From Minisyncoccota bacterium (GTDB lineage: Bacteria > Patescibacteriota > Minisyncoccia > Phycocordibacterales > GWA1-40-21): DNA of 64,000 nt. The DNA lies in the NCBI GenBank assembly GCA_041664585.1, contig JBAYKL010000003.1, positions 49,074-113,073 on the forward strand, in the 5' to 3' direction. Of this stretch, positions 1-32,041 are shown in pieces; positions within the stretch are counted from its first letter, which is position 1, and every line of letters begins with the position of its first letter. A program made the translations under genes and the position numbers. The notes under the pieces are model-generated. The model saw only the letters and a program-made list of their open reading frames with translations, had not been told where the DNA came from and did no database searches.

Positions 1-357
1 CAATTATCTTTCTGTGATTATACGGATAGCGAACCAAATGGATGGTGTGCTGGTGTGTTGGATCATAGTATGAGTTTAAACAGCTGGCATTTTGTGGTTG
101 GAGTATTCCGTTCTGACTCCATTGAAGTATATATAGATGGTGTTTCTATTGGAAGTGGAGTAAAGGCTGGATTAACAACTAGACAAGCAGGTGCTGACCC
201 AGTTAACCTCACTATTGGTGGTAGATCAGTAGATACATATATTCAAAGATGGAGCGGTTTGATAGACGAAGTCGCTATTTGGGATCGTCCTATTTCTCCT
301 GTTGAAATTACCACTCTTTACAACGGTGGTGCTGGTATGAGTATAATTACACCTTAA
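1..357 (+). CDS. 3' fragment of a LamG/concanavalin-like lectin-fold domain protein (5' end outside window)
   Basis: Frame 1 is open from base 1 to TAA at 355-357. The residues VNLTIGG...LIDEVAIWDRPISPVEITTLYNGG resemble the C-terminal strands of laminin-G/concanavalin jelly-roll domains. Confidence 0.4.
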   Translation, partial: QLSFCDYTDSEPNGWCAGVLDHSMSLNSWHFVVGVFRSDSIEVYIDGVSIGSGVKAGLTTRQAGADPVNLTIGGRSVDTYIQRWSGLIDEVAIWDRPISPVEITTLYNGGAGMSIITP

Positions 358-7045: not shown

Positions 7046-8251
7046 ATGGCACAAGAATTTGAAAGATCAAAGCCACACGTAAACGTGGGTACCATTGGTC
7101 ACATTGACCACGGTAAGACAACATTGACTGCAGCTATTACTTACGTGCAGTCTCTTAAGGGTTTAGCAAATCACATCGCTTATGATCAGGTTGCGAAAGC
7201 GTCTGAAAAAGACGGTAGAAGAGATTCAACAAAAATCATCACTATCGCTATTTCTCACGTTGAGTACTCATCAGATGCAAGACACTATGCGCACGTCGAC
7301 TGTCCTGGACACGCTGACTACGTAAAGAACATGATTACTGGTGCTGCCCAAATGGACGGTGCTATCCTTGTTGTGTCAGCTGTTGATGGCCCTATGCCTC
7401 AGACAAAAGAACACGTTCTCTTAGCTCGCCAGGTTGGTGTGCCAAAGATCGTTGTCTTCTTAAACAAGTGTGACCTTGTTGATGATGCAGACCTATTGGA
7501 CCTAGTTGAAGTAGAAATCAGAGAGCTTTTGACTAAATACAACTTTGATGGAGATAATGCTCCTATCATAAGAGGTTCAGCTACAGGCGCTCTTGCTTGT
7601 AAGACAGCAGATGAACCAGGTGCAAAGTGTATAGCAGATCTTTTGACAGCATTAGATACATATATCCCTATGCCTGTTAGAGACGTAGATAAGCCATTCC
7701 TTATGCCAATCGAAGACATTTTCTCAATCGAAGGAAGAGGAACTGTTGTTACAGGTAGAATCGAAAGAGGAACTGTAAAAGTTGGTGAAGAAGTTGAAAT
7801 CGTTGGTATTAGACCAACAGCAAAATCAACAGTTACTGGTATTGAAATGTTTAATAAACAACTTCAAGACGGAAGAGCTGGAGATAACGCTGGTATCTTG
7901 CTTAGAGGTACAAAGAAAGAAGACGTCACAAGAGGTCAGGTTCTTTGTAAGACAGGTACAACAACTCCACATACAGAATTTGAGGCTGAAGTTTATATTT
8001 TGAAGAAAGAGGAAGGTGGTAGACACACTCCATTCTTCTCAGGTTATAAGCCACAATTCTACATCAGAACAACAGACGTTACTGGAGATGTTACATTAGC
8101 TCCAGGAGTTGAAATGGTTATGCCAGGAGATACAGTTACTTTCAAAGTTAAATTGGTAAACCCAGTTGCTCTTGAAGATAAGATGAGACTTGCTATCAGA
8201 GAAGGTGGTAAGACTGTAGGTTCTGGAGTTATCACAAAGATAGTTGCCTAA
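7046..8251 (+). CDS. tuf: elongation factor Tu
   Basis: 401 aa; [27 protein letters not shown] motifs; the switch-I region carries a short insertion relative to E. coli. Confidence 0.95.
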
Positions 8252-8397
8252 CAAGTTTTAGTTTAAGGATATAATATTTTATATCAAAAACTAATAACTG
8301 AAATCTAAATATGACTGCAACAAAAACAACAAAAAAGAATACAAGTACATTAAAATCAAAAGTTTCAAAAAAGTCTGTAAAGGAGGATGCTGTTCCT

Positions 8398-8697
8398 ATG
8401 CTAAGAATTAGAGTAAGAGCATATGATAGCAAAGTTCTTGACGCTTCAGTCAAACAGATTATTGAAACAGCCATGAGACACGATGTTAAAGTCGTTGGTC
8501 CTGTGCCTTTGCCAACAGAAATCAAGAAATATACTGTCAACAGAGCATCATTCGTCTACAAAAATGCGCGAGAACAATTTGAGATGAGGATACACAGAAG
8601 ATTGATAGATATTATTGGTCCTTCAGCTAAGGTAGTAGAGGCGCTCACAAACTTGAGCTTGCCTTCAGGTGTGAATATTGATGTGAAGATGGTTTAA
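8398..8697 (+). CDS. rpsJ: 30S ribosomal protein S10
   Basis: MLRIRVRAYD...GPVPLPT...RLIDI S10 signature. ATG at 8398 is preceded by AAGGAGGA 11 nt upstream. The in-frame ORF from 8311 adds a Lys-rich extension without a ribosome-binding site and is considered untranslated. Confidence 0.85.
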   Translation: MLRIRVRAYDSKVLDASVKQIIETAMRHDVKVVGPVPLPTEIKKYTVNRASFVYKNAREQFEMRIHRRLIDIIGPSAKVVEALTNLSLPSGVNIDVKMV

Positions 8698-8824
8698 GGA
8701 TTAAAATTAATAGACGCATCGCGATATTATCTTTGATAAGTACAAACATCTTCTTAATTTATTTAAGAAGGTGTTTGGCTTTTAGGGGTAATTGAAAAAC
8801 GCGCTCTGCATTAATAACGCTGAA

Positions 8825-9430
8825 ATGAAATTTATACTAGGAATAAAACAGAATATGACCCAGATCTTTGATGAGAAGGGAAATGTACAGCCTGCGACAA
8901 TATTGTCGGCTGGACCTCTTTTTGTAACTCAAATAAAAGACAAGAATATAGATGGGTATTCTGCCGTGCAAGTCGGTTTTGGTACTAAAAAAGAAAAGAA
9001 TATAAATAAGCCAGAAGCTGGGCACTTAAATGGTGTTAATGCTAGATTCTTGAAAGAATTTAGATTAGACGATACTTCTGCTTTTAAAGTTGGCGACAAA
9101 TTAGATTTATCTGTTTTGTCAGTTGGCGATTGCGTAGAAGTTTCTGGAATCACAAAAGGTAAAGGATATCAGAGTGTTATCAAAAGACATGGTTTCAAGG
9201 GTCAACCAAGAAGTCATGGTCAAAAGCACTGCGAAAATGCTCCAGGTTCTATCGGAGGAGGTCTTAGAAATAGAGTTCCAAAGAATATGAGAATGGCAGG
9301 CAGAATGGGTGCTGACAGAGTAACAATAAAGAACCTTAAAGTCCTTGGAGTCGACCAAGAGAATAATCAGATTTTAATAAGTGGTGCTATCCCTGGAAAG
9401 AGAGGTACTCTTATTGAAGTACGTGGTTAA
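8825..9430 (+). CDS. rplC: 50S ribosomal protein L3
   Basis: MKFILGIKQNMTQIF matches the L3 N-terminus (MKGLIGKKxGMTQ). The longer ORF from 8792 (TTG) is rejected. Confidence 0.85.
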   Translation: MKFILGIKQNMTQIFDEKGNVQPATILSAGPLFVTQIKDKNIDGYSAVQVGFGTKKEKNINKPEAGHLNGVNARFLKEFRLDDTSAFKVGDKLDLSVLSVGDCVEVSGITKGKGYQSVIKRHGFKGQPRSHGQKHCENAPGSIGGGLRNRVPKNMRMAGRMGADRVTIKNLKVLGVDQENNQILISGAIPGKRGTLIEVRG

Positions 9431-9447
9431 TTTTAAATACTACTATT

Positions 9448-10188
9448 ATGGAAAAGAAAATTAAAACAGAAAAGAAAGTTTCAAAGAAAGCCGTAAAGAA
9501 AGTGGTTGTTCAAGGCGATGCTATAAATGCAAAAGTTTATAGTCAAAAAGGTTCTGCTGTATCTGATATACAATTACCAGCGAATATTTTTGGACTTAAT
9601 TGGAATGCAGACCTTGTACACCAAGTTGTTGTTTCAATGCTTTCAGACTCAAGAGTTATTCACGCTCACACACAAGACAGAGGTGAAGTAAGAGGGGGAG
9701 GTAAGAAACCTTGGAGACAAAAAGGTACAGGTAGAGCAAGACACGGTTCATCAAGATCACCTATTTGGGTTGGTGGAGGTATTGCTCATGGTCCAAACGG
9801 ATTAAAGAACTATGGAAGAAAGATCAACAAGAAGATGAAAGCAAAAGCACTTTTCACTATTCTTTCAAAGAAATTTAGAGATAATGAAATAGTTTTTGTA
9901 GACAGATTCGAAATTGAGAAACCAAAAACAACAGAAGCTATTGCTATTCTTAAGAACCTAAGCAAAGTAGCAAAAACTATTCTTACAAAAAAGAATAATA
10001 GCGCTATCCTTGCAACAGCAAGCAAGAACCCTGTGTTTGAAAAGAGTTTCGCAAACCTAGGAAATATTACTGTAGATGAATTGAGAAATATCAATCCTGT
10101 AGATTTGATGAACATAAAATATTTGGTTATCGAAAATCCAGAAGAGTCGATCAAATTTATTGAAAATAAAATGGCTAAAGCTAAATAA
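9448..10188 (+). CDS. rplD: 50S ribosomal protein L4
   Basis: RGGGKKPWRQKGTGRAR...GGG.AHGP L4 signature. Confidence 0.9.
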   Translation: MEKKIKTEKKVSKKAVKKVVVQGDAINAKVYSQKGSAVSDIQLPANIFGLNWNADLVHQVVVSMLSDSRVIHAHTQDRGEVRGGGKKPWRQKGTGRARHGSSRSPIWVGGGIAHGPNGLKNYGRKINKKMKAKALFTILSKKFRDNEIVFVDRFEIEKPKTTEAIAILKNLSKVAKTILTKKNNSAILATASKNPVFEKSFANLGNITVDELRNINPVDLMNIKYLVIENPEESIKFIENKMAKAK

Positions 10189-14898: not shown

Positions 14899-15339
14899 AT
14901 GAAAAAAGAGTATATACTTTACAGCTCATCTTTAGTCCTTGTATTAATTTCTGTTTTAAATTATCTAGGTGGTCAGTTTTATTGGTATTGGACTTACAGA
15001 TGGTTTGATATCCCTGTACACATGCTTGGAGGTGCTTGGATTGGACTTACAACTCTTTGGCTATGGGCACATTTTATGCATTTGAAAGTTATAAAAACTT
15101 TTCGTATGAAAGCTCTTGGGGTGGTAGTTTTTGCAATTTTTTTTGTAGGAATTTCTTGGGAGGTGTTTGAGCTTTTGGGAGGTATTACGGATATGACAGA
15201 TAGGGGATATTGGCCTGATACAATAGGGGATATAATAAATGATTCTATTGGTGGTATGTTTGCGTATTTTCTTTTTATAAAAACAAAGAAACCAGAGAAA
15301 GAACCAGCTGTTATTAGTGTTGGGAATAATATTAATTAA
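14899..15339 (+). CDS. VanZ-like small membrane protein
   Basis: 146 aa with four hydrophobic segments; the C-terminal DTIGDIINDSIGGMFAYFLF resembles the VanZ-family D..(I/L)(A/I)N..GG motif. Confidence 0.4.
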   Translation: MKKEYILYSSSLVLVLISVLNYLGGQFYWYWTYRWFDIPVHMLGGAWIGLTTLWLWAHFMHLKVIKTFRMKALGVVVFAIFFVGISWEVFELLGGITDMTDRGYWPDTIGDIINDSIGGMFAYFLFIKTKKPEKEPAVISVGNNIN

Positions 15340-15340
15340 A

Positions 15341-16699
15341 ATGAAATTAACTTTTTATGGAGGAACGGGTTCGGTAACTGGTGCTAATTTTTTAGTAGAA
15401 ACAGATAGCTTGAAGTTTGTTGTTGATTGCGGAATGATGCAGGGTTCAGATATCGCAGAGAGTTTTAATCGTGATCCATTTCCTTATGATCCTTCTACAT
15501 TGGGCTATCTCTTGGTCACTCATGCACATATAGACCACATAGGAAGAATTCGTAAATTAGTAAAAGATGGTTTTAATGGAAAGATAATCAGCACACCAGA
15601 GACGAAAGAAATTGCGGGCTTTCTTTTAGAAGACTCTCTTAGGATTATAGATGCTGATTCTAGAAAGAAAGGAGTCTTACCAATGTGGGAAAGGAAAGAT
15701 ATGGAGAAAGCCATGTCGCTTTGGCAGACGCTTGAATACCATACAGATTTTTCTTTAAACAGTGAAATATCTATTTATATGAAGGATTCTGGGCATATCT
15801 TGGGGTCTGCGATGATTGAGGTAAAGAGTAGTAAGGGCAAGATTGTATTTACTGGAGATCTTGGTAATTCGCCATCACTTTTGTTGAATGATACAGAAGA
15901 AATTACAGATGCAGATTATATCGTAATGGAGAGTGTATATGGAGACAGAAATCATGAACCAAAAGATGTAAGAAAAGAGAAATTAAAACAGGCTATTTTA
16001 GATACAATAAAAAATAAAAAAGTTCTTATTATTCCAGCATTTTCTCTTGAAAGAAGTCAGATGATTCTTTATGAGATGAATGATTTTTTTGAAAACGGAA
16101 TTATTCCTCAGATTCCTGTTTTTATGGATTCTCCTTTGGCGAGTAAAATTACAAAAGTATATGAAGAATCTAAGAACCTTAAACAGAGCGTACTAGATGA
16201 AATGAAAGCTGGGGATGATGTATTTAAATTTCCAAAACTTAAGTTTACAGTTAGAGCAGACGAATCAGAAAGAATCGATAATACTCCAAATCCTAAAATA
16301 ATTATTGCTGGTTCAGGTATGTCGACTGGTGGAAGAATTATTCATCATGAAAAGGACAATGTTGGGAACAAAGATGCAACGATTCTTCTTGTGGGATATC
16401 AGTCTATCGGTACTCTTGGTAGGAAACTTCAGGATGGATTAAAGGAGGTCCAGATTTACGGAGAAAATATTAAGGTGAAAGCTAGAGTGGATACGATTAC
16501 TGGGTATTCTTCGCATAAAGATTCAGATCACCTAACTGCTTTTGTGGAAAAAGCTGCAGAACAAGAAAAATTAAAGAAAGTATTTGTGGTAATGGGTGAG
16601 CCGAAGTCTTCGCTTTTCTTAGTTCAGCGTCTTAGAGATGATCTTAATGTTTCCGCTGTGAATCCGGAGTATAAACAAGAGGTGGAGATTAGTATTTAG
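15341..16699 (+). CDS. metallo-beta-lactamase / beta-CASP ribonuclease (RNase J-like)
   Basis: HAHIDHIG (HxHxDH) motif, GH...D metal ligands, C-terminal beta-CASP/RMMBL-like region (YSSHKDSDHL). ATG at 15341 lies two nt after the upstream stop. Confidence 0.7.
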   Translation: MKLTFYGGTGSVTGANFLVETDSLKFVVDCGMMQGSDIAESFNRDPFPYDPSTLGYLLVTHAHIDHIGRIRKLVKDGFNGKIISTPETKEIAGFLLEDSLRIIDADSRKKGVLPMWERKDMEKAMSLWQTLEYHTDFSLNSEISIYMKDSGHILGSAMIEVKSSKGKIVFTGDLGNSPSLLLNDTEEITDADYIVMESVYGDRNHEPKDVRKEKLKQAILDTIKNKKVLIIPAFSLERSQMILYEMNDFFENGIIPQIPVFMDSPLASKITKVYEESKNLKQSVLDEMKAGDDVFKFPKLKFTVRADESERIDNTPNPKIIIAGSGMSTGGRIIHHEKDNVGNKDATILLVGYQSIGTLGRKLQDGLKEVQIYGENIKVKARVDTITGYSSHKDSDHLTAFVEKAAEQEKLKKVFVVMGEPKSSLFLVQRLRDDLNVSAVNPEYKQEVEISI

Positions 16700-16750: not shown

Positions 16751-16790
16751 GGGGTTTGGGCATAGCCCAAACCCCGTCTTTGCTTTATCG
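16751..16790 (+). terminator. rho-independent terminator (first copy of a duplicated element)
   Basis: ggggtttggg-cata-gcccaaacccc hairpin followed by gtctttgcttt. Copy 2 at 21759 has a compensatory stem variant. Confidence 0.6.
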
Positions 16791-17290
16791 AAATGAACCA
16801 TGGTTCATTTCGGTATCTGTCTTTGCGAGCAAAGCGAAGCAAACCATCTCTGGATTGCTACGTCGGCAGACCTCCTAGCAAAGACAGGAAACCTGTTTCT
16901 TGTTTCTCTTAAGATCATATACTAAATACTTATACTGTATACTCACTAACGCTTATCCACACCCCCAAATCCATTGCATCCCACTCTCAAAAACTATGTA
17001 ATATACACATGTCACAGAAAATCTCTAAGTCTCTTTCTAAAATAAAGAAAATATCTATATACACAATATCTGCTTTCATTGTAGCTAAGCTCGTAGTATT
17101 TGCAGGCAATCTTATACCAGAAAGTACTCCAACCACTTCAACAATGGTTACGCTAGGTGATTTATATGAGAAAATCACAAATAACTCATATACCGCTTCT
17201 TCTCATCCAGTATCTACCACTACTTCACCAGCTTCTACATTCTCTACTCTAGAAAGCATATATAATGCTATACCTGACATATCTGGTAAT
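16751..17290 (+). repeat. copy 1 of an approximately 540-bp segmental duplication (terminator, 230-bp conserved leader, first about 90 codons of gene A)
   Basis: More than 90% identical to 21759-22297. Contains the perfect palindrome cgaaatgaacca|tggttcatttcg at 16789-16812. Confidence 0.85.
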
Positions 17291-17776
17291 GCGGCATCTA
17301 TCCTTTCAAATACCTCTATTATGGGAATACAGGGCACTCTTTCTATTCCTTCTGCTTCTCAGGTTGCTACAGGTACAGTATTTGGACCTAATGCTAATGG
17401 AGAAACTATTGGTACTCTTCCTGTCACCGCTCCTGTTCTTCCAGATACCATTAGTGCTTGGTCAGTAGCTAAGTCTACGGGTACTTGGGGTGGAGCTATT
17501 CTATTTTGTAATAATTTGGCAGAAGATGGTGCGAATTGGAGGTTGCCGAAAATAGCAGAACTAGCATTTGCTTTGGAAGAACAATTTAAAAGCAACCCTT
17601 CTTATGTAGATCATGATTTTGCATCGAACTCTGCTTATTGGTCAGGTGTTGAGTCCGATAATAATCCTACAAACGAGGCTTACTACGGTATTTATTATAC
17701 TGATATTAATTACAACCACGTGTACAGTTTTTCTGGCAGTAAGGGTCAAAGTTTTCTCATCCGCTGCGTCCACTAA
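17009..17776 (+). CDS. secreted/anchored DUF1566 (Lcl C-terminal domain)-like protein, paralog A1
   Basis: N-terminal hydrophobic anchor; Ser/Thr-rich linker; conserved W..A..FCNNL.E.G..WRLPK..EL ... YWSG ... RCVH motif block shared with 17788, 22016 and 22744. Confidence 0.6.
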   Translation: MSQKISKSLSKIKKISIYTISAFIVAKLVVFAGNLIPESTPTTSTMVTLGDLYEKITNNSYTASSHPVSTTTSPASTFSTLESIYNAIPDISGNAASILSNTSIMGIQGTLSIPSASQVATGTVFGPNANGETIGTLPVTAPVLPDTISAWSVAKSTGTWGGAILFCNNLAEDGANWRLPKIAELAFALEEQFKSNPSYVDHDFASNSAYWSGVESDNNPTNEAYYGIYYTDINYNHVYSFSGSKGQSFLIRCVH

Positions 17777-17787
17777 TTTTTATATCT

Positions 17788-18513
17788 ATGAAAAACAAAT
17801 TAAAATCATACATACCTAAAATACGCACAATATCTTTATATACGATATCTACTTTTATCGCAGCTAGACTTATAGCTTCAGCCGGTAACTTAGCTCCATC
17901 AGAAGCACCAGCCCCTACTATGGTGACCTTGGATCATTTGTTTAATAAAATTCAGGATAATTATTATTATTTTGGTGATGAACCAAAACTTTCTATTTCT
18001 ACATTATTATCTCCAGCAAACTCTATGCGTACATTGTTGGAAGTATATACTGCTATACCTAGTATCTCTCCAGATACTATTGCTACCGGTACTACTATTA
18101 TGGGCATACCGGGGAATGTGATTATACCGACGGCGAATACGGTGCAGTACGGAGTGCAGTTTGGGGATATGCCTTATAATTATCAAACAGGAACGATTAG
18201 CACGCCAACTAATATATGGTCAAATGCTTCAACAACAGCTAACTGGAATAACGCATTGGTTTTTTGTAATAATCTATCAGAAGGTGGACATGCTTGGAGG
18301 TTGCCGAAGGCGAACGAAATAGTTCAAGGTTTGTCAGAACCAGTTAATGGTTTCGGTCAATATGTGAATGTGTGGTCTGGTACAGATTATGGGGTAGACC
18401 CTTATGATGGCTATGACAAAGCTTTTTTAGGTTCAGTTTTTGCTAATTACACTGAAGCTTACAGCTGGACTGCTTATAAAAATTGGACATTTCATGTCCG
18501 TTGCACCAGATAG
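17788..18513 (+). CDS. secreted/anchored DUF1566-like protein, paralog B1 (Tyr/Asp-rich C-terminus)
   Basis: N-terminus MKNKLKSYIPKIRTISLYTISTFIAARL is 90% identical at DNA level to 22744. Motif LVFCNNLSEGGHAWRLPK. Confidence 0.6.
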   Translation: MKNKLKSYIPKIRTISLYTISTFIAARLIASAGNLAPSEAPAPTMVTLDHLFNKIQDNYYYFGDEPKLSISTLLSPANSMRTLLEVYTAIPSISPDTIATGTTIMGIPGNVIIPTANTVQYGVQFGDMPYNYQTGTISTPTNIWSNASTTANWNNALVFCNNLSEGGHAWRLPKANEIVQGLSEPVNGFGQYVNVWSGTDYGVDPYDGYDKAFLGSVFANYTEAYSWTAYKNWTFHVRCTR

Positions 18514-18647
18514 GGATTTTTTTACTAAGTCTACAACTAGATTCTGCTAGATAATTAAATAGCAAATTTTGTGTTTTTGTGTTATAAAAAGAATATCTAG
18601 AATAATGTATTTTGGATAGGGAGTTCTTTTCAAAAAAAGGGGATTTT

Positions 18648-18866
18648 ATGAGAAAAATAAGAAGTCACAGACTTATTGTAAGTGGTATCGTTTACCGTTG
18701 TGTCGTAATTTTTTTTACAACACTGTTCTTCTGGCTCGGGGTTAAACCACTGGTCGATTCGTGTGGCCCATTTGGCGCTGCAGTTATCTGGGGGATTATA
18801 AATACGCTTATTTACTACGCATATCACTTTCTCTTTGCTAAGATGTTCAAATTGGGCAAAGATTAG
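18648..18866 (+). CDS. small membrane protein, DUF2061-like, immediately upstream of cysD
   Basis: 72 aa; ribosome-binding site AAGGGG before the ATG; two TM helices; ends ...NTLIYYAYHFLFAKM, resembling the DUF2061 YY.HE motif. Confidence 0.35.
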   Translation: MRKIRSHRLIVSGIVYRCVVIFFTTLFFWLGVKPLVDSCGPFGAAVIWGIINTLIYYAYHFLFAKMFKLGKD

Positions 18867-18874
18867 GCTGGTAC

Positions 18875-18909
18875 GACGCGATTCTTGAAAAGAATCGCGT
18901 CTTTTTTTT
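18875..18909 (+). terminator. hairpin plus T tract between the small membrane-protein gene and cysD (possible attenuator)
   Basis: gacgcgattctt-gaaa-agaatcgcgtc followed by TTTTTTTT. Confidence 0.55.
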
Positions 18910-18924
18910 AATGGATTTTATGTT

Positions 18925-19830
18925 ATGCTTTATTTTATGATAAAGCTGAATCATCTAGAGGTGCTTGAATCCGAAAGCATACATATTATAAGGGAAGCTG
19001 TGGCCACTTTCAAAAATCCAGTGATGATGTATTCAATTGGTAAAGATTCCTCAGTGCTATTACATCTAATGAGAAAGGCGTTTGCTCCTACTAAGATACC
19101 TATACCATTACTTCATGTTGATACCGGATATAAATTTAAAGAAATGATTGATTTTAGGAATAATATTGCAAAAGAGCTTTCTCTTAATCTTATTGTTCGT
19201 AAAAATGAATCAGAGCAGGCAAAATCTTTTAAACCAGAAGAGGCCAATACAGACGAATATATATATCACAAAAAAACAAAGGCTCTTTTAGATGCAATTA
19301 AAGAATTTAATTTTGATGCTGCTTTTGGTGGTGGTAGACGCGACGAAGAAAAATCAAGAGCTAAAGAAAGGATTTTTTCTTTTAGGGATGTAAACAATGT
19401 CTGGAATCCTAAAAAACAGAGACCTGAGCTTTGGAATTTGTATAATACAAAAATAAAACAAGGGGAAACCATGAGGATTTTTCCACTATCAAATTGGACA
19501 GAGCTAGATATTTGGACTTATATAAAACAAGAAAATATTTCTATTGTGCCTTTGTATTTTGCACAAAAAAGAAAAATGCTAAAAAGAAATGGGGTGTTTA
19601 TAAGAGTAGACGAATTTAATATACCAAAAGAAGGGGAAGAGATATTTGAAGATTGGAGTAGATTCAGAACTCTGGGCTGTTCTCCTTCAACAGGTGCTAT
19701 TATTTCTAAAGCTGGTAATCTAGATGAAATTATTGAAGAAATACGTTTGACTCGTTTTTCTGAAAGACAGACAAGAGCAATAGACAACGGTTCAAGTATG
19801 GAAAGTAAAAAGAAACAGGGGTATTTTTAA
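18925..19830 (+). CDS. cysD: sulfate adenylyltransferase subunit 2 (CysD/NodP family)
   Basis: Near-collinear with E. coli CysD: [70 protein letters not shown]. Confidence 0.9.
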
Positions 19831-19841
19831 AAAAATATATT

Positions 19842-21095
19842 ATGGAAAATAAAGAATTTGTTATTGTTGCAACTTCGGGGAGTGTGGATGATGGAAAATC
19901 TACTCTACTAGGGCGTCTTTTGTATGATTGTGATTCTATTTATCAAGATGTTTTGAAAACTCTCAAGAAAGATTATGAATCAGAAGACGTGGTGGTAGAT
20001 AATCTCGCTTATGTTACAGACGGTCTGGAAGCTGAAAGGGAACAGGGTATTACTATTGATGTGGCTTACAAACATTTTTCTCGTACTCACAGAAAATTTT
20101 TGTTGGTAGATGTTCCTGGGCACGAGCAATATACAAGAAATATGATCACCGGAGTGTCTCGTGCAGATGCTGTGGTTATTATGATAGATATGAATTTGGG
20201 TGTTTCAATACAATCCAAGAGACATTTTTTCATTGCCTCAATGTTGGGGGTAAAAAATATTATTTTTGCATTGAACAAAATGGACCTTATGGGTTTTAAG
20301 CAAGAAATTTTTGAAAAAGTAAAAAGCGAATTGGAAGATTATTCTACAAAGCTTAATGTATCTAATTGTATTTTTATCCCTATGTCTGCTAAGTATGGAG
20401 ATATGGTAGTAGCCCGTGGAGAAAGAATGAATTGGTATGAGGGGCCAACACTACTCAGTGTTTTAGAAACATTTTCTTTTTCTGAAGATTTGGGCAGTGA
20501 AGATTTTAGGTTGCCAGTTCAGTGTGTATTAAATGATTCTAATTTTAGGGGTTATGCAGGTAAGGTTGAGGCTGGAGTATTAAATGTTGGCGATAAAGTC
20601 ACAATTGTGCCTTCTGGAAAAAAGACTAGTATAAAAGAGATATATATAGGTTTTGATAAAGTGGAGACGGCTTCAAAGGGCCAATCTATAGCAGTGTCTG
20701 TAAATGATAAACTAGATATTAGTCGCGGGGATATAATAATTGGGGCAGATAATTCTATAGTTCAGTCGAATAATTTGGATGTAATTTTGTTCTGGTTTGA
20801 TGAGAAGTCCTTAAAAGAGGGAAGAGATATTATTTTGAAAAATAACACTAAAGATGTTCGTGGTACCGTTCAGAATATTGAGTACTCTATTGATATGAAT
20901 ACCACACAAAAAATTGAAAAAGTAGGTATTTTGAATCAAAATGATGTGGGTAAGGCTAGTATAAAATTAAACTCTGACATATTTTTTGATACTTACGCAA
21001 AGAATAAAAATATGGGAAGTTTTATTCTGATAGACGATATTACTTATGATACTATTGGAGCGGGTATTATTTTAGGTAAAAAAGATGAAAAATAA
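19842..21095 (+). CDS. cysN: sulfate adenylyltransferase subunit 1, GTPase (CysN/NodQ N-terminal part)
   Basis: SGSVDDGKSTLLGRLL, DVPGHEQY, NKMD GTPase motifs; beta-barrel domains follow. Confidence 0.85.
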   Translation: MENKEFVIVATSGSVDDGKSTLLGRLLYDCDSIYQDVLKTLKKDYESEDVVVDNLAYVTDGLEAEREQGITIDVAYKHFSRTHRKFLLVDVPGHEQYTRNMITGVSRADAVVIMIDMNLGVSIQSKRHFFIASMLGVKNIIFALNKMDLMGFKQEIFEKVKSELEDYSTKLNVSNCIFIPMSAKYGDMVVARGERMNWYEGPTLLSVLETFSFSEDLGSEDFRLPVQCVLNDSNFRGYAGKVEAGVLNVGDKVTIVPSGKKTSIKEIYIGFDKVETASKGQSIAVSVNDKLDISRGDIIIGADNSIVQSNNLDVILFWFDEKSLKEGRDIILKNNTKDVRGTVQNIEYSIDMNTTQKIEKVGILNQNDVGKASIKLNSDIFFDTYAKNKNMGSFILIDDITYDTIGAGIILGKKDEK

Positions 21096-21648
21096 AATTA
21101 AAAAAAACAGCAAAAAAATTAAGAAAAAGAGTGGAGCAGTTCTTTGGCTCACTGGTCTTTCTGGTTCTGGCAAAAGCACGATAGGGGATTCTCTTCATGA
21201 AATTTTGAATAAAAAAGGTATTTCAGCACAAAGGCTCGATGGAGATATTTTAAGAGAGCATTTTGAAAATAAACTAGGTTTTAATAAAGAAGGCAGAGAT
21301 TTGAATATTAAAATATCTGCCTTTACTAGCTCTCTTTTAGAAAAACATGGGGTCATCGTCATTTCTTCTTTTATAAGTCCATATAAACACCAGAGAGATT
21401 TCGCGCGTAATCTTTCTAAAAAATTTATAGAGATACATGTAAATGCTTCTGTTGAGACATGTATCAAAAGGGATACAAAAGGACTCTATAAAAAAGCTCT
21501 CGCAGGAGAGATTAAAAATTTTACTGGTATTTCAGATCCGTATGAAGTTCCAGAAAATCCGCATCTTGTGATTGATACCGATATTTTGAATATCAAAGAT
21601 TCTGTAAAAAAAGTTTTAGATTATTTAACAAAAGAGGGGATAATCTAA
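21085..21648 (+). CDS. cysC: adenylyl-sulfate (APS) kinase
   Basis: VLWLTGLSGSGKSTIG P-loop and the LDGD motif of APS kinase; overlaps the cysN stop by 11 nt. Confidence 0.85.
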   Translation: MKNKIKKNSKKIKKKSGAVLWLTGLSGSGKSTIGDSLHEILNKKGISAQRLDGDILREHFENKLGFNKEGRDLNIKISAFTSSLLEKHGVIVISSFISPYKHQRDFARNLSKKFIEIHVNASVETCIKRDTKGLYKKALAGEIKNFTGISDPYEVPENPHLVIDTDILNIKDSVKKVLDYLTKEGII

Positions 21649-21758
21649 GAAGGGGTCGAGGTGAGACCTTGCCTGCCCGTCTTGCCTGCTTTAGGCTGGC
21701 TCAGGAGGGAATCTTCAAAAAGGTCTCTCCTCGACTACGAAAATTCTAAAAACACAGA

Positions 21759-21796
21759 GGGGTTTCGCTCCGCGAAACCCCGTCTTTGCTTTATCA
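21759..21796 (+). terminator. rho-independent terminator (second copy; stem differs from copy 1 by compensatory changes)
   Basis: ggggtttcgc-tcc-gcgaaacccc then gtctttgcttt. Confidence 0.6.
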
Positions 21797-22297
21797 AAAT
21801 GAACCATGGTTCATTTCGGTATCTGTCTTTGCGAGCAAAGCGAAGCAAACCATCTCTGGATTGCCACGTCGGCAGACCTCCTAGCAAAGACAGAAAACCT
21901 GTTTCTTGTTTTCTCTTAAGATCATATACTAAATACTTATATTGTATACTCACTAACACTTATCCACACCCCAAAATCCATTGCATCTCACTTTCAAAAA
22001 CTATATAATATACACATGTCACAGAAAATCTCTAAGTATTTTTCTAAAATAAAGAAAATATCCATATACACCATATCTACTTTCATTGTAGCTAAGCTTG
22101 TAGTATTTGCAGGTACTCTTATGCCAGACAGTACCCCAACCACATCAACAATGGTTACATTAGGTGACTTATATGAGAAAATTACAAATAATTCATACAC
22201 AACTTCTTCTCACCCAGTATCTACTACTACCTCACCAGCTTCTACATTTTCTACTCTGGAAAGCATATATGATGCTATACCGGATATAGCTAGGCAG
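21759..22297 (+). repeat. copy 2 of the approximately 540-bp segmental duplication
   Basis: More than 90% identical to 16751-17290; palindrome aaatgaaccatggttcattt at 21796-21815. Confidence 0.85.
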
Positions 22298-22732
22298 GCG
22301 AACTTGATAGATTCAACACATTCTCTTATGGGTGTACAAGGTGCTCTATACATTCCTACAATAAATCAAGTGGCTTCAGGTACACACTTTGGTCCCAATG
22401 GAAGTTTGGTAGGGACACTTTCTGCTGCTGCGGTGGCCTCGGATGAAATTAGTGCTTGGTCAGTAGCTAAATCTTCAGGTACATGGAGTGAAGCCATTCT
22501 GTTTTGTAATAATCTATCAGAAGGTGGACATGCTTGGAGGTTGCCGAAGAGGGCAGAGCTAGAGGGGCTAGTTAATAGTCCATTTTCATCATATACAATT
22601 TATTGGTCAGGTACAGAGGGTTTTATCAATCCCACTCATGCTTATGGCATCTATAGCTACGACTCAGGTTTTTCCGTCAATGCATATAATTATATGAAGA
22701 CGGACGTTCTTGGTGTTGGTTGCGTCCACTAA
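22016..22732 (+). CDS. DUF1566-like protein, paralog A2
   Basis: First 90 aa nearly identical to A1. C-terminal motif block includes a 48-nt stretch identical to B1 (ttttgtaataatctatcagaaggtggacatgcttggaggttgccgaag). Confidence 0.6.
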   Translation: MSQKISKYFSKIKKISIYTISTFIVAKLVVFAGTLMPDSTPTTSTMVTLGDLYEKITNNSYTTSSHPVSTTTSPASTFSTLESIYDAIPDIARQANLIDSTHSLMGVQGALYIPTINQVASGTHFGPNGSLVGTLSAAAVASDEISAWSVAKSSGTWSEAILFCNNLSEGGHAWRLPKRAELEGLVNSPFSSYTIYWSGTEGFINPTHAYGIYSYDSGFSVNAYNYMKTDVLGVGCVH

Positions 22733-22743
22733 TCTACACATCT

Positions 22744-23499
22744 ATGAAAAACAAATTAAAATCATACATACCTAAAATCCGCACAATATCTTTATATACG
22801 ATATCTACTTTTATCGCAGCTAGACTTATAGCTTCAGCTGGTAACCTAGCACCTACAGAAGCTCCAACTCCTACCATGGTAACATTGGACCATCTGTTTA
22901 ATAAAATTCAGAATAATACTTATTCTACAAGTACAGATGAAAAGTTGTCTATTTCAACACTACTATCTCCAGCAAACTCTATGCGCACCTTGCTGGAAGT
23001 ATATACTGCTATACCTAGTATTTCTCCAGATATTATTGCCACTGGTACCACTATTATGGGTATACCTGGGAATGTGGTGATGCCAGATGCAGCGAATGTT
23101 GCTAATGGGGTTGGATTTGGTCCTAGTAATTTTTATGACGATGGCTATGGTGGATTTTATTTTAGTGGTTATCCTTTTGTTGGTGAATTTAAAACATCTC
23201 ATCAGATATGGTCAAACGCTACAGGTAGCGGAAATTGGAATGATGCTATTTTGTTCTGTAATAATTTATCAGAAGGCGGGCATGCTTGGAGGTTGCCTAA
23301 GGATGGTGACTGGGGAGCCATGCACGAACCTTCTTTTCCAGGTAGATATTTTTGGTCTGGTACTGAAGTGAGTGCTGAATACGCTAGAGCATTCGGGATA
23401 TTTGATAGTGGCCAGGGATACTATTATGCTGCTCCATACTCAGATCAGTCGGATAAAGCTGCTGGCTACGGCGTTCGTTGTATAACTAAAACATTGTAA
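22744..23499 (+). CDS. DUF1566-like protein, paralog B2 (Tyr/Asp/Gly-rich C-terminus)
   Basis: ATG at 22744 gives MKNKLKSYIPKIRT..., matching the B1 start; the ORF-track start at 22720 is rejected. Motif ILFCNNLSEGGHAWRLPK. Confidence 0.6.
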   Translation: MKNKLKSYIPKIRTISLYTISTFIAARLIASAGNLAPTEAPTPTMVTLDHLFNKIQNNTYSTSTDEKLSISTLLSPANSMRTLLEVYTAIPSISPDIIATGTTIMGIPGNVVMPDAANVANGVGFGPSNFYDDGYGGFYFSGYPFVGEFKTSHQIWSNATGSGNWNDAILFCNNLSEGGHAWRLPKDGDWGAMHEPSFPGRYFWSGTEVSAEYARAFGIFDSGQGYYYAAPYSDQSDKAAGYGVRCITKTL

Positions 23500-23579: not shown

Positions 23580-24428
23580 TTATTCTAAAGTTGTATTTAA
23601 TTTTAATTCTCTTTTTGTCCAAAAGTTTAAATGCTCATATTTTTTTGCAGCAGCCTCTCCTATAAGTATGGGCCATTTTGGTAGTACCGGTGTAATTACA
23701 GCCCTTATCGTATGTAAGTCATCAAATCCGTGGTATTCATCTTTCTCAAATACGACTTGTTTTACATTATTGAAGTCATGTTTATATCTAGGAATCTCTA
23801 GAAAATCATATATTTTATTCATAACTTTTTCAGGACTATGAGTAAAAGATTCAAAGTCTACAAAAAGCATTTGCTTGGCATAGCCTTTGTGTACAGCATC
23901 ACGCATTTGATTGTATGCGCTACCCACAACTTCTTTTGAGTCCATAAATACTTCAAGTCTGCCTTCAATAGTATTAAATTTATCTGGGTTTCCCATTTCT
24001 TGTGGTATTGCTCTGTGTCCTGTATTTTTTCTCCACAAAGATTCAAAGCTGGCCAAGACTTCTCTGATATCTCTCACCGTTACAAGTAATTTAACAGGAT
24101 GACCAAGGATTTCTTCTGCCATTTCTATATTTCCACACCAACCACGAGATTTATCTACACAATATTTTTTGTCTGTATTTGAAAAGTAGCCCTCAAACAT
24201 CCCGCGCATTATTCTAATAGAAGACACTTTGTCATCTATGTGGTCGGAAGCTTTTATGGAAGGCATCTGACTCCACATGTTTTTTGTATTTCTCATAAGA
24301 CCTATAATGCTACTTGTAGGGGTGACATAGAAATCTGGGTTTTGAGATAGGACATTACAAAGTAGGGTGGAGCCAGAGCGGGGAAGTCCTGATAGGAAGA
24401 AGTATTCTCTTGTTTTTTTATCGTTCAT
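23580..24428 (-). CDS. PAPS-dependent sulfotransferase (Sulfotransfer_3 / Stf0-NodH-RaxST-like)
   Basis: 5'-PSB motif LPRSGSTLL near the N-terminus and a 3'-PB-like motif VTVRDIREVLAS; 282 aa. Confidence 0.65.
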   Translation of the reverse strand: MNDKKTREYFFLSGLPRSGSTLLCNVLSQNPDFYVTPTSSIIGLMRNTKNMWSQMPSIKASDHIDDKVSSIRIMRGMFEGYFSNTDKKYCVDKSRGWCGNIEMAEEILGHPVKLLVTVRDIREVLASFESLWRKNTGHRAIPQEMGNPDKFNTIEGRLEVFMDSKEVVGSAYNQMRDAVHKGYAKQMLFVDFESFTHSPEKVMNKIYDFLEIPRYKHDFNNVKQVVFEKDEYHGFDDLHTIRAVITPVLPKWPILIGEAAAKKYEHLNFWTKRELKLNTTLE

Positions 24429-28156: not shown

Positions 28157-28177
28157 TTTATTCTATTTTTGTTCTAG

Positions 28178-28584
28178 TGGAGATGCCGAGAATCGAACTC
28201 GGGTGCAAATGATTGAACTCAATGCTTCTACAAAGTCTAGTTGATTTGTTTCCGTCCGAAGACGAATTTAGGTTTGTAAACTATAAAACAACAAAACATT
28301 TACAAACCGATTCTCTATTTTCGTCACTAGACGAGAAGGCTAGTGATATATTCTGAAAATATTGCACCTCATTCTACCTCTCAGAAGTCAGTAGATGAAA
28401 TGTAGCTTAGGCTAAAGCGTAAGCTAAAGTAAGGTCCTTGGCACCAAAAAATGGTGATACAATTCCCGCTACTTTTTGTGTAAAGCTTTTTGCATTTACA
28501 AGTCCTTGGTAGATTTAGGAGTTCACAAGGTTGCTCCACTTTGCGCAAGAGAGAACGGACCAATTGTCTAGGCCGATCATCCCC
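28178..28584 (-). ncRNA. ssrA: tmRNA (transfer-messenger RNA)
   Basis: Minus-strand 5' end GGGGAUGAUCGGCC. 3' end ...GCACCCGAGUUCGAUUCUCGGCAUCUCCA (T-arm GUUCGAUUC plus acceptor, CCA encoded). Internal tag ORF ...GAKDLTLAYALA-UAA. Immediately downstream of smpB. Confidence 0.85.
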
Positions 28585-31927: not shown

Positions 31928-31967
31928 TTTAATAACAGGGCTACGGAAGCTCTGTTTTTTTATGATG

Positions 31968-32041
31968 TACGCCTGCCTGGATTCGAACCAGGGACCCCCG
32001 AGGTATAAGCTCGATGCTCTAACCAGCTGAGCTACAGGCGT
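31968..32041 (-). tRNA. tRNA-Ile (anticodon UAU) candidate
   Basis: Reverse complement folds as acceptor ACGCCUG/CAGGCGU, D-arm GCUCAGCUGGUUAGAGC, anticodon stem UCGAG/CUCGG with loop CUUAUAC, T-arm CCUGGUUCGAAUCCAGG, discriminator A. Confidence 0.7.

Follow-up and report, generated by a model that had tools for sequence, protein, structure and literature searches.

Results

Two A-B gene cassettes

The DNA analysed here, a stretch of 64,000 nucleotides (nt) from a Minisyncoccota bacterium of the candidate phyla radiation (CPR), hereafter called the window, carries four related genes, A1, B1, A2 and B2, which encode putative surface proteins with a lectin-like head. The genes lie on the forward strand as two pairs, or cassettes. 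Cassette 1 consists of A1 (17009..17776, 255 amino acids [aa]) and B1 (17788..18513, 241 aa), and cassette 2 of A2 (22016..22732, 238 aa), the paralog of A1, and B2 (22744..23499, 251 aa), the paralog of B1. All four open reading frames (ORFs) were present and intact, in agreement with the four-member paralog family described in an original prediction made from the DNA alone. B1 starts 11 nt past the stop codon of A1, and the two genes are therefore probably co-transcribed. The ATG at 22744 was taken as the start of B2 because it is homologous to the start of B1; in the mechanical ORF list, B2 begins at an upstream TTG (22720). The public gene calls also differ at this start, with 207 aa in the JGI call (from MVTLDHL) and 251 aa in the ENA call, and the homology to B1 favours the latter.

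In the alignment, A1 and A2 shared 68% identity overall and approximately 91% across the first 90 residues, and the A proteins were approximately 40% identical to the B proteins. At approximately 90%, the N-termini of the paralogs reached only the low end of the 90-95% identity that had been claimed for them. Repeat finding and a sliding identity profile placed the duplicated unit at 16757-18513 and 21766-23499. The unit of duplication is thus the complete A-B pair together with approximately 240 nt of upstream non-coding DNA; the paralogy of the four genes stands, but they are not four independent paralogs.

Domain composition and predicted surface role

A1 began with a hydrophobic anchor or signal and ended in an Lcl_C lectin-like head; the stalk between them was rich in Ser/Thr and had two T-x-x-T-L-x-x-(I/L)-Y-x-x-I helices. 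B1 had the same architecture. Lcl_C (PF07603, formerly DUF1566) was the sole Pfam domain matched in each of the four proteins. The score of A1 (36.5 bits) was above the gathering score of 34.9, and those of A2 (31.7), B1 (21.9; E 2e-4) and B2 (18.3) were under it, although still significant (E 2e-7 to 3e-3); all four proteins were mutually homologous in the alignment. A search of NCBIfam, including TIGR02145 (Fib_succ_major), gave zero matches for the four proteins at E<=1. Consequently, the DUF1566 half of the signature originally proposed was recovered, and the TIGR02145 half was not. Moreover, a 33-sequence family profile matched the solved C-terminal domain of Legionella Lcl with an E value of 8e-9 via the DWRLP...EL...YWSS...VR core. 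In the AF2 monomer model of A1, a helix spanned residues 5-30, the head (residues 150-255) had a predicted local distance difference test score (pLDDT) of approximately 90 over most of its length, and two short confident helices lay on the TMVTLGDLYEKI and TFSTLESIYNAI motifs. The C-type-lectin-like fold of the Lcl C-terminal domain was accordingly assigned to these proteins.

The shared motif block and the N-terminal anchor on which the family had been proposed were both present in the alignment. The motif box shared across the paralogs was TMVTLGDLYEKI / TMVTLDHLFNKI, and the C-terminal motifs were FCNNL(S/A)E.G..WRLPK ... (Y)WSG(T/V) ... C(V/I/T)(H/R/T), with the exception that A2 has G instead of R preceding the Cys. 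Residues R178 and E184 of A1, which align to DWRLPTRFEL of Lcl, are six residues apart, like Arg338 and Glu344 of the Lcl salt bridge. R178 was invariant in the four paralogs, and E184 was kept in A1, A2 and B1 and lost in B2; each of the two was at least 90% conserved in a 14-sequence family alignment.

The most hydrophobic 19-residue window comprised residues 15-33, and five Lys/Arg were found within residues 1-15. This basic N-terminus, the hydrophobic helix of approximately 19 residues and an invariant A-G-x-L-x-P motif may constitute a signal anchor or a cleavable signal peptide, which would be followed by a short stalk and then by the C-type-lectin-like Lcl_C/DUF1566 head at the C-terminus. 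Exactly two Cys were present in each protein, both invariant family-wide, and a disulfide between them probably clamps the head, which would then sit outside the cell, where it would bind a ligand. The proteins are thus predicted to be extracytoplasmic, either membrane-anchored or secreted, with a disulfide-clamped lectin-like head. A surface, ligand-binding role, as originally suggested, is reasonable because of the N-terminal hydrophobic helix, the two family-invariant Cys and the lectin-like head, and binding to a ligand or a host would be the function.

Several features set the proteins apart from the Lcl adhesin of Legionella pneumophila, whose C-terminal domain has been solved (PDB 8q4e). 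The collagen-like GXY stalk repeats are absent here; the heads are acidic (isoelectric point [pI] 4.9-5.8, with Asp+Glu outnumbering Lys+Arg), whereas the binding face of the Lcl domain is basic; and the Lcl domain is without a disulfide, in contrast to the two invariant Cys found here. The four proteins are therefore not collagen-like adhesins of the Lcl type, which have a GXY stalk and a basic glycosaminoglycan-binding face. The likeness to TvpA of Treponema denticola, which represents the FGE-sulfatase-type subclass of CLec-fold targets of diversity-generating retroelements (DGRs), is at the level of the fold only.

Uneven divergence and a 48-nt conversion tract

The synonymous divergence between the two cassettes was strikingly uneven. 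Over the first ~90 codons, the synonymous divergence (dS, Nei-Gojobori) was 0.39 for A1/A2 and 0.42 for B1/B2, and the nonsynonymous divergence (dN) was 0.04-0.08. In the head following WRLPK, dS was saturated and dN was 0.6-0.8 by the same method. Counted as sites, the synonymous differences between A1 and A2 were 20/66 in the N-terminal part versus 30/38 in the head (Fisher p 2e-6), and those between B1 and B2 were 21/65 versus 27/36 (Fisher p 6e-5). This contrast at synonymous sites is beyond protein-level constraint, which leaves two possibilities, homogenisation of the 5' parts later than an old duplication or replacement of the 3' parts.

Furthermore, the identity of a 48-nt tract in B1 (18262..18309, forward strand) with one in A2 (22502..22549, forward strand), which had been noted in the original prediction, was exact. 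The tract encodes FCNNLSEGGHAWRLPK, with which the lectin-like head begins, and is the longest exact match of any A gene with any B gene; the longest exact run between A1 and A2 is only 23 nt. Across the tract, A2 differs from B1 at 0/48 positions and from A1 at 11/48 (5 amino acids), and on both flanks A2 resembles A1 again. B2 encodes the identical 16 residues, yet differs from both B1 and A2 at 5 positions, all synonymous. In a GENECONV-style permutation of the variable alignment sites, the 14 consecutive concordant variable sites of A2/B1 were reached by 0/10,000 shuffles, and when the maximum over all A-versus-B pairs was taken, by 0/5,000. Given the same peptide and the codon usage of this genome, an identical choice at all 16 codons has a probability of ~5e-6. 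A 59-nt exact run was also found between B1 and B2 (permutation p 4e-4). The genes are mosaics, and the 48-nt identity of A2 and B1 is a significant micro-conversion tract, so that both the synonymous contrast between 5' parts and heads and the permutations bear out the mosaic gene conversion that had been predicted. The most parsimonious direction would be from B1, probably the donor, to A2, probably the recipient.

Conserved non-coding leader

The leader of cassette 1 (16769..17008, forward strand) holds the 3' arm of the upstream terminator hairpin, a perfect 24-nt palindrome, CGAAATGAACCATGGTTCATTTCG (16789-16812), a long stem-loop (~16817-16888) and a promoter-like site recognised by its hexamers (16909-16936). 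The same elements were found in the leader of cassette 2 (21775..22015, forward strand), where the palindrome has one mismatch. The two copies differed at 10 of 240 nt (~96% identity), and the coding DNA next to them at 20/66 synonymous sites (Fisher 2e-8). The leader is strongly structured, with an RNA fold z-score of -8.2, and no credible match for it was obtained in Rfam. Outside the two cassettes, the palindrome occurred neither in the window nor in any fetched family locus, and the possibility that the leader is a dispersed repeat was rejected on this ground. A separate GC-rich hairpin of ~85 nt (-42 kcal/mol, z -3.5) was observed at 21654-21736, right after cysC; it belongs to the upstream region of cassette 2 only, and an Rfam search with it was without a match.

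Relatives of the four proteins and their retroelements

A profile of the four paralogs matched 3,205 cluster representatives at E<=1e-3 and 419 at E<=1e-10. The matches were of two kinds, namely giant proteins with many Lcl_C repeats, and proteins of 200-400 aa with the same N-terminal anchor-and-stalk module, which made up approximately half of the top 150. This module was unmatched in Pfam and can bear other heads, for example in P0079. A fifth bearer was observed in the same genome, a Laminin_G_3 protein (window 1-357, continuing upstream; 7845-9788 in locus L023) in which the module is joined to a region rich in Cys and to a Laminin_G_3 head; the anchor-and-stalk module therefore serves several head types. 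Among species-representative genomes, the four-paralog alignment found no close relatives, and a broader family alignment found 5 CPR loci and 7 metagenome loci. No relatives were detected in IMG/VR with the two query alignments. A viral origin was considered and rejected, given this result and negligible matches to PHROGs.

The top full-length matches of the paralog profile included the targets of three verified DGRs. In L007, a Staskawiczbacteria locus, the order was target, bAvd, a 145-nt template repeat and reverse transcriptase, and the differences between template and variable repeat were nearly all at template adenines. The same layout was found in L005 (protein P0019) and L010 (P0009), both proteins being approximately 38% identical to A1, and the mismatches at template adenines numbered 27 in L005, 27 in L007 and 20 in L010. 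A reverse transcriptase or bAvd also adjoined family genes in L011, L020, L021 and the P0152/P0153 contig, and DGR parts were absent from eight of the sampled places (L001, L008, L009, L013, L014, L019, L022 and this window). Thus, the last ~45 codons of this CPR-wide family are a DGR variable repeat in approximately half of the related loci sampled. Variable repeats of the DUF1566 / Fib_succ type form the CLec2 class of DGR targets (PMC5758913), and a survey of CPR found that DGR targets there are usually without a recognisable membrane or functional domain (PMC8144416). The present family, being membrane-anchored, equipped with a lectin-like head and frequently targeted by DGRs, is a clear exception to that rule.

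Two further observations were made at the related loci. The reverse-transcriptase ORFs beside the family genes were short or split in L020 (7097-8026) and L021 (7469-7941), which suggests decaying DGRs and, with them, a route to orphaned variable proteins. In addition, a gene with a peptidoglycan-binding domain (PG_binding_1) lay directly 5' of the family gene in three unrelated loci (L001, 3022-4032; L019, 5036-5980; L020, 5125-5904) and was absent from this window.

Variable-repeat-equivalent segments without nearby DGR parts

Alignment to the verified DGR targets located the segments equivalent to a variable repeat at 17615-17773 in A1, 22580-22729 in A2, 18349-18510 in B1 and 23329-23496 in B2, all on the forward strand. 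When the last ~50 residues were compared with the variable-repeat and template peptides of L005, L007 and L010, the scaffold F..YWSGTE..NP..A(Y/W).G..V..K..VRC was found to be retained, and the four paralogs differed where the DGR templates have Asn. In these segments, the synonymous sites between paralogs were saturated. NNC codons were mildly enriched in them (47 C/106 T versus 79 C/337 T elsewhere, p 0.004), a hint compatible with a former AAC-templated variable repeat. This DGR context is the main addition to the earlier reading of the locus: the paralogs vary where DGRs write.

No ORF with a YxDD motif, as expected of a reverse transcriptase, was present in the 64-kb window. A blastn search (word size 7) with the last 320-370 nt of each gene against the window, made for a template repeat, returned the paralogs only, and RVT_1 and bAvd were missing from the pre-computed annotation of 20.8 kb at the locus and of 10 kb past each window end.

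Genes between and beside the cassettes

The two cassettes are separated by a small membrane-protein ORF (18612-18866), a terminator described as strong (18875-18901), cysD (18925-19830; Pfam PAPS_reduct, 1e-50), cysN (19842-21095; GTP_EFTU, 6e-41) and cysC, encoding adenosine 5'-phosphosulfate (APS) kinase (21085-21648; APS_kinase, 5e-55), all on the forward strand. A sulfotransferase gene (23580..24428, reverse strand; Sulfotransfer_1 and Sulfotransfer_3, ~1e-15) is convergent with B2. A complete set for the synthesis of 3'-phosphoadenosine 5'-phosphosulfate (PAPS), together with a sulfotransferase, is therefore present in a small CPR genome, with the PAPS-synthesis genes bracketed by the two A-B cassettes.

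Discussion

The proposed reading of the locus, to which we assign a probability of roughly 0.7, is that a segmentally duplicated A-B operon encodes DGR-type surface proteins with lectin heads, which are without a nearby DGR and have varied by divergence and recombination. A small operon composed of a regulatory leader, gene A and gene B would have undergone segmental duplication, and the variation would reside in four fixed paralogs, with the divergence of their heads at saturation. Through homologous recombination, the two cassettes would have stayed alike in leader, anchor and stalk, and at least one 48-bp stretch of the head core would also have passed from B1 into A2. With DGR parts absent from ~84 kb and the heads identical in two assemblies, the four genes most likely encode variable proteins of the DGR type that have no DGR close by. 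The earlier description of the recombination as 'ongoing' is not borne out, the two public assemblies being identical across all four genes.

Among the known systems closest to these genes are the DGR variable proteins of the DUF1566 / DUF823 / Fib_succ_major class (CLec2; for example, Legionella LdtA; PMC5758913), which have a C-terminal variable-repeat scaffold as found here; the present proteins are homologous to the verified CPR targets of this class, and surface display is implied in both. However, a template repeat, reverse transcriptase and Avd accompany that class and are lacking from the ~84 kb around the cassettes, the heads differ here by indels and synonymous sites, beyond adenine-templated positions, and the anchor is an N-terminal hydrophobic helix without a lipoprotein signal. 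The locus also resembles, in general terms, paralogous surface-protein families shaped by gene conversion, which likewise combine conserved 5' regulatory, signal and stalk regions with divergent ligand-binding 3' parts; a short conversion tract joins non-equivalent copies here too. In contrast to such families, only two cassettes are present, and a silent donor array, an invertase or recombinase and evidence of programmed switching were not seen at this locus.

A life attached to host cells is presumed for CPR bacteria, yet hardly any of the proteins that mediate this attachment are known. The four paralogs show the form that the family takes where no DGR lies nearby, which makes them sensible subjects for studies of receptor binding. 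The kind to which they belong, that of lectin-fold, DGR-type variable surface proteins, is already known, and the paralogs are new members of it that have evolved as gene-conversion mosaics. The locus combines concerted evolution with diversification of the heads, which is a fairly ordinary pattern and calls for no new mechanism.

The mosaic could also have arisen with no gene conversion at all, by stronger constraint on the anchor, stalk and head core, with the 48-mer as retained ancestry or as a functional element at the nucleotide level. The anchor, the stalk and the WRLP core are indeed the family's most conserved parts at the protein level, and the codons TGG AGG TTG CC are common to all four genes. 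However, constraint on the protein leaves unexplained a dS of 0.4 in the 5' parts beside saturated heads, the five synonymous changes by which B2 encodes the same peptide argue against a universal nucleotide constraint, and within the tract A2 is nearer to B1 (0/48) than to A1 (11/48), a relation that is reversed in both flanks; we consider this explanation quite improbable. It is slightly harder still to maintain that a DGR elsewhere in the genome still acts on at least one of the four genes and varies its head by mutagenic retrohoming. The homologs that are verified targets, the retained variable-repeat scaffold and the NNC enrichment (p 0.004) would agree with such a remote DGR, and non-adjacent or remote targets have been documented for other DGRs, although those in the survey were seen in non-CPR lineages (PMC5758913). 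Against it, no reverse transcriptase, Avd or template repeat was found in the ~84 kb, the heads are identical in the two public assemblies, and they differ from one another by indels and scaffold codons, so that one template could serve at most one head. Taken together, these points make a remote live DGR very unlikely.

Artefacts of assembly, by chimera or collapse, were weighed as a source of the repeat structure or the 48-mer, since the genome was assembled from a metagenome and repeats are known to cause misjoins. The window corresponds to ~193.6-257.6 kb of a 291,888-nt JGI contig, which agrees at every base with a 95,773-nt ENA contig (named k141_...) throughout 20,768 nt including all four genes; the window itself mismatches the two public assemblies at two bases only, 7726 and 15552, both distant from the locus. 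The three longest stretches repeated exactly between the cassettes measure 68, 59 and 48 nt, all below the value of 141 to which the name of the ENA contig points. In view of these short repeats and the base-for-base agreement of the assemblies, an artefact is hardly conceivable and was rejected. A functional tie between the cassettes and the flanked sulfation genes, through a sulfated ligand that the heads would recognise or through sulfation of the Tyr-rich heads by the sulfotransferase next to them, is improbable. It is favoured by the position of cysD, cysN and cysC between the cassettes and of the sulfotransferase convergent with B2, by the binding of sulfated glycosaminoglycans by the Lcl C-terminal domain (PMC11162425), and by the best solved-structure match of the sulfotransferase, protein-tyrosine sulfotransferase 1 (TPST1). 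Nevertheless, the heads are acidic (pI 4.9-5.8) where the binding face of Lcl is basic, the TPST1 match is confined to the PAPS-binding loop (residues 8-59), and cys or sulfotransferase genes lay nearby in 0/16 other family loci. A broader version, in which these are orphaned DGR proteins that lost their retroelement, exchanged hypermutation for four fixed heads reshuffled by conversion and became wired to the flanking PAPS and sulfotransferase genes, appears to us a long shot; if true, it would connect sulfation with host attachment in CPR episymbionts in a way not described before.

Several points weigh against the duplicated, recombining operon with DGR-type heads that is preferred here. 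Three of its four proteins individually miss the Pfam gathering score. The dS estimates for the heads are inflated by the uncertain alignment of these indel-rich regions. The conservation of the leader could reflect either more recent conversion or selection on a regulatory element, and the latter would need no recombination between cassettes. The ~84 kb in which DGR parts are absent are a portion of the 291,888-nt contig, which leaves room for a remote DGR elsewhere; a homology search with the reverse transcriptase of L005 gave 7,988 matches, and the absence of this contig from the best 120 of the 7,988 is uninformative on that question. Finally, the ENA and JGI assemblies may have been built from shared reads.

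Other features of the window

Upstream of cassette 1, a gene at 15317-16699 encodes an RNase with a beta-CASP metallo-beta-lactamase fold. Its top NCBIfam model was Cas14 (type VII CRISPR), and the score of 402 bits against a cut-off of 800 indicates a generic beta-CASP nuclease rather than Cas14. A tRNA-Ile gene with the anticodon TAT was located at 31967-32041. Lastly, a transfer-messenger RNA (tmRNA) of 408 nt was found at 28175-28584, and its tag peptide is unusually long (28 residues).

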